From Sulfolobales archaeon (GTDB lineage Archaea; Thermoproteota; Thermoprotei_A; Sulfolobales; NBVN01): 64,000 bases of DNA. Shown piece after piece: positions 28,473 to 32,062 of the stretch (positions are counted from its first letter, which is position 1; each line of letters begins with the position of its first letter). The notes under the pieces were generated by a model. That model ran no database searches, was not told where the DNA came from, and saw nothing but the letters and a program-made list of their open reading frames with translations. Location of the stretch: contig JANXEN010000004.1 in the NCBI GenBank assembly GCA_025058345.1, positions 50,929 to 114,928 of the forward strand, given 5' to 3'. The position numbers and the translations under genes are program-made.

Positions 28473-29750
28473 TTAAGCTTCAACTACTTGAATGAGTTCC
28501 TTCTGAGATAGTTTAGTAGCTCTTAAGTATTTGCTGCTGACGTTTCTTAAATCTCTGTTTTCCCCCATGATCATTACGGTGACTAACTTGACCCCTAACG
28601 CCTTTAATTTTCTCCTAATCAAGTGTTCTGATATTCTATCCTCTCCATCCGTTATTAAAATTATGTCTGAGATACCTTTGCTGTTTCCGAACCTTATGTC
28701 GTCACAGGCGGTGACTAAGGCCTTAGTTATGTCCGTCCCACCACCACTTTTAACTCTAGCCAAATAGTCTATAAATGAAAGGACTTCATTACTTCTTAAT
28801 CTCTTTGATATCTTAACTAACTGGTGTGGTGAGCCGTCAAAAAATCTTATGAAGTATTCCCTACGTTCTTTTCTTGATTTCATATACAGAGCGATTGCTG
28901 TTGCCTTAGCCCACTTAATTTTATCTCCCTCCATGCTGCCTGATTTATCAAGTAATACGTAGAGGGGACCTCTACTCTCAGGTAATGCTTTATCATAAAG
29001 TAATAGTTTACCTTCAGATATTTTCATATTTAGGTAAAATTTAGGATAGATAAGTTCTGTAGGTACTAATCTCTCAACATCTGAGCCTAACTCATAGCCA
29101 TGCAACTCGCCTTTAGAGGACTTAGTGGTTTTCCTTTTAACTTTGTGAGAAATTTTAGGAATCCATGAGACTACCTCCAATAATTTCTTAACGTCAGTTG
29201 ACTTAGCAAGTCTTAATACATCTTCAGCGCTTTCCTCTAAGTCTAATGTAGTACCTGTACCAGCTTCATTACCTTCACTAAGCATTTTCTCTACATTCTT
29301 TAACACGTCCCCTTCCTCCTTAACGTACTTTAATGCATTATTAACAGCCTTTCTTAGGGTACCTCCATCAACTTCGCTAATTTCGCGATTTATATCTCCC
29401 TCATTTCCTTTTCCATAGGTCAATTCTTCATTTAGGTGTTGTAGGAAACTGGCCGACAATAAAACGCTCATCATAGAGTTAATTAATGTATGTCTTTTAA
29501 TATCCTTTAAAACATCGCTAGATATTAACTCCTTAATTACTTTATAGTTTTTCTCCTTCCCGTACGGTATGCTTGTTTGAGGTATTAATACAGGGAAAGG
29601 TAAGTACATAGCGTAGTAGGTATCGATAGCTAGTTCTAGGTCAGTCTTTATATGTCCCTTGCTAAGCCTCCAGGCTATGTTTGATACCTTCTCACCGCGG
29701 TATATAACTAGAGGGTCCTCATACTTAATCCCTTTAAGAACCCCAGGCAT
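28473..29750 (-). CDS. VWA-domain protein, ViaA-like partner of the upstream RavA-like ATPase
   Basis: C-terminal VWA with MIDAS LLDKSGSMEG, plus GGGTD and ILITDGED. The start overlaps the ATPase stop as TAATG at 29750. Confidence 0.8.
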   Translation of the reverse strand: MPGVLKGIKYEDPLVIYRGEKVSNIAWRLSKGHIKTDLELAIDTYYAMYLPFPVLIPQTSIPYGKEKNYKVIKELISSDVLKDIKRHTLINSMMSVLLSASFLQHLNEELTYGKGNEGDINREISEVDGGTLRKAVNNALKYVKEEGDVLKNVEKMLSEGNEAGTGTTLDLEESAEDVLRLAKSTDVKKLLEVVSWIPKISHKVKRKTTKSSKGELHGYELGSDVERLVPTELIYPKFYLNMKISEGKLLLYDKALPESRGPLYVLLDKSGSMEGDKIKWAKATAIALYMKSRKERREYFIRFFDGSPHQLVKISKRLRSNEVLSFIDYLARVKSGGGTDITKALVTACDDIRFGNSKGISDIILITDGEDRISEHLIRRKLKALGVKLVTVMIMGENRDLRNVSSKYLRATKLSQKELIQVVEA

Positions 29751-32062
29751 TAGGTAATCCTACCCCTTATCATTTCCATAGCCGTATCTATCAACCCTAT
29801 AACTTCATTAGCTACCTTTTCAACATCCTTATTACTACTTTCAAGCATTAGACTAATCACTCTCTCCTTAGTAACTTCTAGATCCCTGTATATTTCTCTA
29901 AATCTCATCTCGACAAACCTTGATTCAACGTTACGCAGTGATGAAACGTAATTAAGTATTTCCTTTACATTAACCTTTATCTCGTTAAGTTCTCTTAGAT
30001 ACTTGTATGGAGTCTTAAGCTCTTCTGAAAGTATCGTGTTAACTTTATCTAATTCTTCTTGGTCCTTCGGAACAACGTACTTTATAACTATTAAATCATC
30101 TTCATTAGCTACAGCCCTACCATTCATCATTGCATGAGCAGCAATTATCTTTAAAGTCTTTCCCTTCCTTCTATCGGTTACGTGTATACCTCTCCCTTCA
30201 AGAACTGCAAGCAGTTTAACGAATTTACTTTTAATGGCATCTACGTTTACGCTTAAAACACTCTTATGTAACTCTCTTAAATGGTCAATCGTCATAATCT
30301 TACCTTCCCTACCATACCCATCCGTAAGGCTTAGTTTAACCTCTAAGTCCCAAGACTTACTCAACAAATCATGCCATAGATCTTCACTAACCGGCTTTAC
30401 GAAGTGCCTCATGGTGAACCTATCGTAGAATGCCTCAGTTTCAGGTTCGTCAGGTACCTCATTACTTGCACCAAATAAACTCCAAAGAGGTACTTTAATT
30501 TCGCTATATCCATCATATAGAATCCTTTCTTGAAGTATGGTATTCAATGAGTTAAGGATCGCTGAGTTCGCCTTAAAAATTTCGTCTAAGAAAGCTATAT
30601 CAGCCTCAGGTAACTTACCATACGTTATCCTAACATACTTCCCTTCATGTAACGCCCTTATATCGAGAGGTCCGAAAATTTCAGCCGGTTCAGTAAAACG
30701 CGTTAATAAGTACTTGAAGAATTTAGCTTCGAGTAGATCTGCAGCCCTACGCACTAAGGCTGACTTAGCAGTATTATGTGAGAGTAAACCGTTAGTGAAG
30801 AAGGCATGAGTTACCGGGATGTGGAAGTCGTAGACATTGAATGAACCACTAATGAAGCTTACGTCATATACTGCATCAAAGATTGGTTGCTTCTTTAACT
30901 GAGACTTTAAGTATTTTTGGCCATCACTTAACGATTTAATTAACGATGCTAATGCTGCGTTTTTAGTAGGAGATATAAACCCTATATCATCTTTAAACTT
31001 TTTAAGTCCATCAACGTCGGAAATCTCTAAGATGCCAACACATCTAGACCCTTTAAATTTAACAATACAGTTATTTGACCTAACCCTAGCAATTATTCCA
31101 TGTCTTAATAACAGCACTTGAACCTCTCTTAACAAATCATCTTTAAGACCCTCTAAAATTAAATAACTACCGTAGTTGTAAGATGGTGATGTAGCATATA
31201 ATAAATTCCCGCACGTCTCAAAGAGAGCCCTTAAAAACGCTCCAGACACCCTCCTAGGCGACTCTAATACTACCTTCGGAATTCTATTTTTATCAGAACC
31301 GATGATTAATGCCTTAAGTATGTTACGGAGGTATGGACTATTGATTCTTACATTCTCTACTACGGATACGTCATATTTATTCGTAGTTTTTCTTACTTCG
31401 GTTATGAGGTCTTTACCTATTACTCTATATATTAAATTGATTGTGTGGTTAATGAGGAAGTCCTCACCCTCTTTGAAACTGAATTCTACGTAATCGCCAA
31501 CTAAAGCACCTCTTATGAGGAATATTCCAAGCAATTCACTTAGTAACTCATCAAATAATATATATTGGTAATCAAATCTGGAGTCAAGCATTACACTCCT
31601 TGCAGGAATTCTAATTAAATCTGTAGGGGATGGGATCTGTGAAATTAGTCTAACCCTATCACCAGGTCTTAATGATTTAGCCTCTACCCAACCTCTATCA
31701 GTCATTATAGGATGATTGGGGGTCACTTCTAAGGAGAAACCTAAGTTAGTGGTAACTCTAACGACTTCCCTCACCTTATATATATGGAGTTGAGTAGCCT
31801 CCGCATTCGGTAGAACAGGAAAGGAAACATCGTAAACCCCGGTGGGGAGTCCGGAGGCGATATCGTCAATGTGGTATAACTTCCCATCATAACTGCTTAT
31901 CAACGTATTTCCTACTACACAGCCAGGCTCACCTATAAATGTGCAATGCTCCCGAGCTAGGAGCGTCAATACTACGACTTTAGCCTCCTCATCACGTCCT
32001 ATGAAGGGATCTTTCAAAACATCTAAGAACGTTCTCAATCTATCAACTAATTCACTCATCAC
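29750..32062 (-). CDS. RavA/MoxR-like AAA+ ATPase interrupted by an intein in the Walker A loop
   Basis: The extein reads [15 protein letters not shown]...[63 protein letters not shown]. This closely parallels the E. coli RavA core as I recall it. Extein is 387 aa, intein 383 aa. Confidence 0.85.
   Translation of the reverse strand: [770 protein letters not shown]
30773..31921 (-). mobile_element. Intein (383 aa) with [9 protein letters not shown]-type endonuclease-like insert, located between G and T of the GEPG-TAKS P-loop
   Basis: Cys1 (CVVGNTLI). Block B [17 protein letters not shown]-like helices [11 protein letters not shown] and [12 protein letters not shown]. Block F/[22 protein letters not shown] followed by +1 Thr. 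Boundary codons checked on the sequence (TGT at 31921-31919, AAT at 30775-30773). Confidence 0.85.

Follow-up and report, generated by a model that had tools for sequence, protein, structure and literature searches.

We analyzed a 64,000-nucleotide stretch of DNA from a Sulfolobales archaeon (the window), and in particular a pair of overlapping genes on its reverse strand that encode a MoxR-type AAA+ ATPase and a protein with a VWA domain. The locus is probably a chromosomal, vertically inherited, two-gene remodelling module from the RavA-like (PF20030) branch of the MoxR/VWA systems. [quoted passage not shown] A sequence-only reading of the window had described the locus as a RavA-ViaA-like pair. 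The RavA-like branch and the VWA partner hold up, but neither protein is a member of the RavA or ViaA equivalog families.

The ATPase resembles RavA in sequence and predicted fold

The ATPase gene is interrupted within the P-loop by a putative intein (see below), so all comparisons of identity, profiles, and folds were made with the spliced 387-amino-acid sequence, or extein. The extein scores 217.2 bits against bpMoxR (PF20030; threshold 27 bits), and RavA from E. coli itself scores 191.2 bits. The extein also matches AAA_lid_8 (PF17868) at 38.3 bits (threshold 22.8; 77.9 bits for E. coli RavA) and AAA_5 at 102 bits. Among the MoxR models in NCBIfam, only the RavA model matches (NF010054, 159 bits), and this alignment covers just positions 6–302 of 498; the cut-off for this equivalog is 681 bits. 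When we searched all sequences in the Protein Data Bank (PDB), RavA was the sole strong match (E = 9e-37) and the only one below 1e-3, and no other MoxR structure was below 0.01. The extein is 33.8% identical to RavA over 302 amino acids, versus 14–22% for the outgroups MRP, YehL, CoxD, and GvpN (GvpN is at 17.5%). With BLAST, CoxD had no significant similarity to the extein (E > 2).

The expected functional residues are present. K50 and S51 (Walker A), D110 and E111 (Walker B), N151 (sensor 1), R165 (arginine finger), and R248 and R249 (sensor 2) do not vary among 20 homologues. The Walker A motif is intact only once the intein is removed.

The predicted structure of the extein (AlphaFold2; mean predicted local distance difference test, or pLDDT, of 80) has an AAA+ module, a lid, and three C-terminal helices at residues 302–325, 332–359, and 362–386. 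With this model as the query, Foldseek ranked RavA (3nbx) first (E = 7.5e-17, TMq 0.68, 342 columns), above the MRP-type protein 2r44. In RavA, the triple-helical domain is formed by residues 307–330 and 442–497, and the LARA domain (331–441) is inserted between them (PMC4124505). The lengths of the three modelled helices match this triple-helical domain, and a loop of six residues (326–331) lies at the position of LARA. We found no match of the extein to the LARA family (PF20265) at E ≤ 1, while RavA itself scores 135.5 bits; the C-terminal signature of RavA (PF12592) also had no sequence match in the extein. Given how the helices of the model line up with the domain limits of RavA, the predicted archaeal ATPase looks like a RavA in which a short loop replaces LARA.

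The sequence-only reading held that the ATPase parallels the core of RavA and not just MoxR proteins in general. The profiles, the search of PDB, the identities, the predicted fold, and the tree (below) all agree with this. The 63-amino-acid segment that it quoted aligns to residues 71–134 of E. coli RavA with 40 identities in 64 columns; for YehL and an MRP-type MoxR, the best local alignment reaches only 9–10 identities.

Placement of the ATPase among MoxR families

To place the extein, we built neighbour-joining trees from about 290 core columns and used 200 bootstraps to see how often the archaeal proteins and RavA form an exclusive group. The references were RavA from E. coli and Vibrio, a homologue from a Listeria plasmid, gp66 of phage 0305phi8-36, and ORF588 of the virus SMV1, along with YehL, an MRP-type MoxR from Rhizobium, GvpN (of the CGN subfamily), and CoxD (of the APE2220 subfamily; PMC3893208). 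APE0892 and PA2707 are not among the sampled subfamilies.

A RavA-like superclade that includes the extein is separated from CoxD, GvpN, YehL, and MRP with 100% bootstrap support, and the ATPases from the Thermoprotei form a clade with 88% support. ORF588 from SMV1 also lies within the superclade and is 26% identical to the window's ATPase. The closest non-archaeal sequences (35–45% identity) are bacterial MoxR proteins whose genes adjoin bpX, fvmX, and WD40 genes. An exclusive clade of the archaeal proteins and gamma-proteobacterial RavA appeared in 0 of the 200 bootstraps, with the caveat that neighbour-joining is a simple method and makes this a weak test.

Whether the extein lies in the RavA clade, which had been put forward as a check, depends on how that clade is defined. 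Judging by sequence, it is within the broad RavA-like group, in which the scheme of the Houry laboratory already places ATV p618, a protein of a crenarchaeal virus (PMC3893208), and it is outside RavA proper. Membership in RavA proper is not supported: the window's ATPase lacks the LARA domain and scores 159 bits against the cut-off of 681, and the archaeal ATPases form a clade of their own.

The VWA partner shares a motif and the MIDAS domain with ViaA

As had been suggested, the second gene encodes a VWA/MIDAS domain at its C-terminal end: DKSGSMEG, GGGTD, and TDGED are all within this open reading frame (ORF), and the MIDAS set is complete (D268, S270, S272, T339, and D368) and invariant in 30 homologues. 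Just ahead of the domain is the motif GELHGYELGSDVERLVPTEL, which is also found in ViaA (at about residues 250–270). The motif has the form GE.xGYExGSDxERxVPTEL, with G214, G218, G222, and R227 invariant. The AlphaFold2 model of the partner (pLDDT 79) has a helical N-terminal domain, a low-confidence segment, and the VWA domain. Foldseek matched this model to VWA domains, with NorD from the NorQD complex among the top hits.

How far the similarity to ViaA extends is another matter. Using hhalign with two ViaA sequences, residues 137–369 of the archaeal protein align to residues 153–422 of ViaA at 97.9%, and no similarity to ViaA was detected for the first ~135 residues. The helical N-terminal domain showed no detectable likeness to residues 1–150 of ViaA, its profile gave a probability of just 1% against ViaA by hhalign, and BLAST of residues 1–245 of ViaA against representatives of the partner's family gave no match. 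Because of these results, we do not claim that the N-terminal parts are homologous. Similarly, the partner scores 32.1 bits against the ViaA equivalog (NF008230; cut-off 500), and only its VWA part is aligned. The proposed likeness to ViaA stands for the pre-VWA motif and the VWA/MIDAS domain, but not for the first ~135 residues or for the equivalog score (32 versus 500 bits).

The N-terminal domain instead points to a phage family. It matches the N-terminal domain of proteins like gp63 from phage 0305phi8-36 (99.7% by hhalign). When we searched 1.84 billion proteins with its profile, we found 227 representative proteins, most of them 430–620 amino acids long, and these are full-length homologues of gp63.

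In ViaA, the N-terminal part (residues 1–319) is enough for binding RavA, and the LARA domain of RavA is not needed (PMC9489729). On this basis, we infer that the segment shared by ViaA and the archaeal partner may be a docking element.

The two genes are paired in every archaeal locus examined

The module is conserved across thermophilic archaea. In each of the 41 other archaeal loci that we examined (39 from Thermoprotei and 2 from Archaeoglobi), as in the window, the VWA gene comes after the ATPase gene on one strand, and in all 41 the homologue of the partner is full length. The order is the same in six genomes of Sulfolobaceae. Thus, the VWA neighbour is retained in related archaea. The flanking genes of the window (ilvD, Lrp, a GTPase, and an aminotransferase) are conserved in relatives as well, and housekeeping synteny with L001, the locus of the closest relative, extends over 13 genes.

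In the window, the overlap between the two genes (attaccTAATGcct) is confirmed as TAATG at position 29750: the TAA stop codon (29752–29750) and the ATG start codon (29750–29748) have one base in common. From this overlap, the two genes may be translationally coupled. The ATPase precursor has 770 amino acids if translation begins at GTG (32062) or 769 if it begins at ATG (32059). A public record, GCA_033582295.1, uses the ATG; its VWA protein is 100% identical and its gene order matches.

Inteins at the P-loop and, in relatives, at the MIDAS motif

The precursor of the ATPase has GEPG before the putative intein and TAKS after it. Excising residues 48–430 (CVVGN...LLSHN, with T following) gives a 387-amino-acid extein with GEPGTAKS, which is the invariant Walker A motif of intein-free homologues (~380 amino acids). 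The insert has the features of a class 1 intein: Cys1 (in CVVGN), TPNH in block B, His-Asn at the end, and Thr at the +1 position (SHN and then T). Also, the precursor scores 42.9 bits against Intein_splicing from Pfam (cut-off 35.8), and the splicing blocks are conserved in six homologous inteins. These motifs and blocks suggest that the intein can splice. LAGLIDADG_3 scores 20.8 bits, which is under its cut-off of 22.5, and the two LAGLIDADG motifs (one is LLGIFLIRG) lack the usual acidic residues (Asp), so the homing endonuclease may be degenerate.

Six other loci contain homologues of this intein at the same site in the P-loop (L001, L004, L009, L012, L013, and L032). Those that are full length are 37–40% identical to the window's intein, and L004 retains only the last 27 residues. 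Five of these loci and the window form one clade (91% bootstrap), and L032 has a different place in the tree, a pattern that suggests transfer of the intein or multiple losses.

Several relatives have an intein in the other gene. In an Archaeoglobaceae metagenome-assembled genome (L044:9134-11686) and several metagenomic homologues (P0150, P0241, P0247, and P0248), the VWA partner is interrupted inside its MIDAS motif (DK, C...HN, SGSM). With this placement, the first serine of the MIDAS would serve as the +1 splice nucleophile. The two members of the module are therefore interrupted at key motifs in different lineages: the P-loop in the window and the MIDAS in these relatives. The main text of Novikova 2016 makes no mention of inteins in MoxR proteins.

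Relationship to known systems

Like RavA-ViaA from E. coli, the archaeal pair combines an ATPase with an AAA+ core, an H2 insert, and an AAA_lid_8 lid (34% identity), as well as a predicted three-helix bundle at its C-terminal end, with an overlapping downstream gene. That gene encodes a helical N-terminal part and then a VWA/MIDAS domain, and the pre-VWA motif is common to both systems. The archaeal pair differs in its host, in the intein that interrupts its ATPase, in having neither LARA nor the sequence signature of RavA_C, in belonging to a separate clade, and in the first ~135 residues of the partner, which cannot be aligned to ViaA.

The Bacillus phage 0305phi8-36 encodes a MoxR-like ATPase (gp66) and a VWA protein (gp63), and the similarity extends over the full length of both proteins. 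Among the phage families (phrog_19600 and phrog_24053), the archaeal ATPase matches positions 50–422 of the 447 positions of phrog_19600. The archaeal partner aligns to the gp63-like family over residues 3–418 (100% by hhalign) and resembles it in predicted fold (Foldseek TMq 0.59 over 539 columns). A fold search of BFVD likewise related the partner to gp63-like phage proteins (TMq 0.54–0.62 over ~500 columns), and the PHROGs profiles agree. However, the phage proteins are longer and viral, the archaeal pair is chromosomal and syntenic, and the sequences are just 20–33% identical.

The ternary conflict systems described by Kaur et al. 2020 share the bpMoxR family, the LARA-less architecture of ~380–400 amino acids, and the GxxxTAKS form of the P-loop, and they include the closest non-archaeal sequences (35–45% identity). 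Unlike them, the archaeal module has just two genes, without bpX, fvmX, beta-propeller, VMAP, iSTAND, an FtsH-like partner, or effectors. NorQ/NorD and CbbQ/CbbO suggest a working model by analogy, with a hexameric MoxR protein, one VWA adaptor, and a MIDAS that acts on an acidic patch of the client. In contrast to the archaeal pair, those ATPases are from the CGN subfamily of MoxR, their adaptors are much larger, and their known clients are encoded adjacent to them.

A working model and its alternatives

We propose that the 383-amino-acid intein would leave the P-loop of the 770-amino-acid precursor to give the active Walker A (GEPGTAKS) of a 387-amino-acid ATPase, in which a predicted AAA+ alpha/beta domain with an H2 insert is followed by a lid of the RavA type and a C-terminal bundle of three helices. 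This ATPase would form a hexamer and bind one copy of the 425-amino-acid partner, with the contact likely made by the partner's pre-VWA segment and N-terminal helical domain. The MIDAS of the partner would capture an acidic residue on a client, and ATP hydrolysis would then remodel that client, for instance by inserting a cofactor or maturing a complex. We based the hexamer, the docking, and the MIDAS–client steps on analogy with RavA/ViaA, NorQ/NorD, and CbbQ/CbbO. In NorQD, the MIDAS binds the client and not the ATPase (PMC9976466).

Several considerations weigh against this model. The hexamer, the stimulation of ATPase activity, and the MIDAS-dependent binding of a client are all carried over from those other systems. 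Splicing competence is read from motifs only. The likeness of the C-terminal bundle to that of RavA is structural and model-based, without a signal in the sequence, and the deep branches of the tree have weak bootstrap support (21–44%), with values of 21–64% for the deeper nodes within the RavA-like superclade. Also, we found no third gene conserved beside the pair in the window or the 41 archaeal loci, so no neighbour points to a client.

The most direct alternative is that the pair is a true orthologue of RavA-ViaA from E. coli and takes part in the LdcI cage, in maturation of Nuo or Frd, or in effects on the membrane and aminoglycosides. RavA is indeed the closest characterised relative of the ATPase, the order and overlap of the genes are as in ravA-viaA, and some public records name the orthologues "ATPase RavA." However, no LARA or RavA_C signature was detected in the ATPase, and in E. 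coli it is LARA that mediates binding to LdcI and lipids (PMC9489729). Both proteins fall short of the equivalog cut-offs (159 versus 681 bits and 32 versus 500 bits), no bootstrap grouped the archaeal proteins exclusively with RavA, and the first ~135 residues of the partner show no detectable similarity to ViaA. We consider true orthology with a shared role very unlikely, and because LARA is absent, it is unlikely that the archaeal ATPase forms a cage with LdcI. Another idea takes up the proposed link between RavA-ViaA and Frd, with the pair as a factor dedicated to maturing or regulating an archaeal complex II (of the succinate dehydrogenase/fumarate reductase type). The pair is tail-to-tail with sdhABCD in Sulfolobus, Saccharolobus, Acidianus, Sulfuracidifex, Stygiolobus, and strain RB850M. 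(We examined this linkage in L093–L098 and L015, which represent S. acidocaldarius, S. solfataricus, M. sedula, A. hospitalis, Sulfuracidifex, Stygiolobus, and RB850M.) In Metallosphaera, the sdh genes flank this 7-kb block at its opposite end, apparently as the result of one inversion. Binding of FrdA by ViaA from E. coli has also been reported (cited in PMC9489729), but the interaction was not reproduced in vitro (PMC9489729). Furthermore, the whole block of ~15 kb is syntenic across the Sulfolobaceae, which implies a single ancestral arrangement, and the genes are convergent. There is no sdh gene within 8 kb of the pair in 36 loci from outside the Sulfolobaceae or anywhere in the 64-kb window, and three loci related to Sulfolobaceae (L017, L019, and L026) lack the linkage. 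Overall, a role dedicated to complex II seems unlikely to us. A related reading makes the pair a core remodeller in archaea, one that acts on a respiratory flavoprotein complex (complex II, of the SdhA/FrdA type). It is suggested by the tail-to-tail position of the pair and sdhABCD throughout the Sulfolobaceae, and we view it as quite unlikely. If it were true, then the disputed link between RavA-ViaA and fumarate reductase in E. coli would be an ancient function that is conserved across domains, and the inteins in the P-loop (here) and in the MIDAS (in relatives) would add a post-translational on-switch.

Two further explanations involve viruses. The module could serve in antiviral conflict as one of the ternary MoxR-vWA systems (Kaur et al. 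2020), given that its nearest bacterial relatives (35–45% identity) belong to the bpX/fvmX/WD40 ternary systems and that its P-loop is the GxxxTAKS variant noted for them. Yet neither the window nor any of the 41 archaeal loci has a third component, an effector domain, or a bpX/fvmX gene nearby, the partner consists of a helical N-terminal domain and a VWA domain with no effector fused to it, and the locus is single-copy and lies in housekeeping synteny that is conserved across orders. PADLOC had no matches either. We rejected this reading, which is highly improbable, because there is no third gene and no PADLOC match, and bpX and fvmX genes are found only beside the bacterial relatives. Alternatively, the module could derive from a virus and be related to p618/p892 of ATV or ORF588 of SMV1 (virion tail morphogenesis). 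Viruses of the Sulfolobales and several phages do encode RavA-like ATPase/VWA pairs, and SMV1 ORF588 is in the same superclade. But the identity to ORF588 is only 26%, this locus has neither viral genes nor an integrase or att-like context, and the flanking ilvD, Lrp, GTPase, and aminotransferase genes are conserved in relatives. A viral origin is thus extremely unlikely, and we favor the chromosomal remodelling module.

Neighbouring genes

The coordinates of the pair and its neighbours are given in Table 1. None of the LdcI, Frd, or Nuo partners from E. coli is encoded beside the pair, as the sequence-only reading had noted; this is based on the immediate neighbours, and the search across the whole window was for Sdh. 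Across the archaeal loci, the flanking clusters are lineage-specific and housekeeping, such as SSB, a PqqD-like protein, MoeA, cytidine deaminase, a HAD hydrolase, or an ABC transporter. In L002, L037, L038, and L039, a set of ABC-transporter genes is beside the pair on the same strand: an ATPase, a 945-amino-acid protein, and an FtsX-type permease. The 945-amino-acid protein has a hydrophobic stretch at its end and looks surface-exposed.

Table 1. Features of the MoxR/VWA locus and its surroundings, by position in the window
Feature	Position	Strand	Basis
RavA-like MoxR AAA+ ATPase, precursor ORF	29750..32062	-	ORF list; Pfam bpMoxR, AAA_5, AAA_lid_8, Intein_splicing
N-extein, residues 1–47, ending in GEPG (first half of Walker A)	31922..32062	-	Splice junction
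Putative intein within the P-loop, 383 amino acids, with LAGLIDADG-like insert	30773..31921	-	Residues 48–430; Pfam, splice blocks
C-extein: TAKS, H2 insert, Walker B (DE), sensor 1, Arg finger, lid with sensor 2, then three predicted C-terminal helices; interval includes the stop codon	29750..30772	-	Alignment to RavA
TAATG stop/start overlap of the ATPase and VWA genes	29748..29752	-	Sequence read
VWA/MIDAS partner ORF, 425 amino acids	29750..28473	-	ORF list; Pfam VWA_2, VWA
Partner, helical N-terminal domain, residues 1–195	29166..29750	-	AlphaFold2 model
Partner, pre-VWA segment, residues 196–258, conserved, low confidence (pLDDT 40–58)	28977..29165	-	Alignments, AlphaFold2 model
Partner, VWA domain with complete MIDAS, residues 259–425 and stop	28473..28976	-	Pfam VWA_2, VWA; DKSGS at 28935-28949
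TTTATTTAA, archaeal TATA-like box, 20–28 nt upstream of the TatD ATG	28454..28462	-	In the 38-nt spacer
TatD-like metal-dependent hydrolase, 283 amino acids	27583..28434	-	Pfam TatD_DNase, 79.7 bits
Circularly permuted GTPase, NKSD ahead of GxxxxGKS	26777-27568	+	Pfam RsgA_GTPase, MMR_HSR1
tRNA-Pro(TGG), upstream boundary of the ATPase gene	32156..32230	+	ARAGORN; Rfam tRNA, 66 bits
180-amino-acid ORF upstream of the tRNA	32472-33014	-	No Pfam or NCBIfam match

The TatD-like gene does begin 38 nt past the stop codon of the VWA gene, on the same strand, as had been read from the DNA. It is adjacent to the pair in just 11 of the 42 archaeal loci (counting the window). In two of these, the window and L001, it has the same direction as the pair, and in the other 9 it is convergent. 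Also, TTTATTTAA in the spacer is at the position expected for the TATA box of a leaderless TatD transcript and is a putative promoter element. We therefore rejected TatD as an operon member; it is most likely an independently transcribed positional neighbour and not a conserved part of the operon.

Convergent with the TatD-like gene is a GTPase from a circularly permuted family that is involved in ribosome biogenesis in other organisms. TatD is absent from L004, L009, and L012, and there the GTPase gene comes directly after the VWA gene. Beyond the opposite end of the pair, the tRNA-Pro(TGG) gene lies about 95 nt upstream of the start of the ATPase and is the only RNA gene that ARAGORN and Rfam identified in the 64-kb window. 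The 180-amino-acid ORF upstream of this tRNA is conserved only in L001 (47% identity).

Significance

Pairs of MoxR and VWA proteins have been known as a kind since 2006, and the clients of RavA-ViaA are still debated even in E. coli. Orthologues of the ATPase in Sulfolobus acidocaldarius, S. islandicus, Saccharolobus solfataricus, Acidianus, and Metallosphaera are annotated as AAA or MoxR ATPases, and two records say "ATPase RavA." In our literature search, we found no paper about the cellular archaeal ATPase-VWA pair, nor one under "RavA-like." The classification is unchanged, as this is a MoxR/VWA pair whose family is in Pfam and whose members already have generic (sometimes "RavA") annotations. 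Our additions are modest: the predicted LARA-less architecture, the link between the partner and the gp63-like family (with homology to ViaA being partial), the inteins, and the lead from sdh.

What the archaea offer is a LARA-less relative of RavA that always has a MIDAS adaptor as its partner and is encoded at a single conserved locus in the tractable species S. acidocaldarius and S. islandicus. The elements that are common to bacteria and archaea, namely the ATPase's H2-insert region along with the partner's pre-VWA segment and MIDAS domain, are candidates for the contact and working parts of these machines. The archaeal pair may thus be a simpler system for finding the targets of RavA-type MoxR/VWA proteins, without the LdcI cage or the binding of lipids by LARA.

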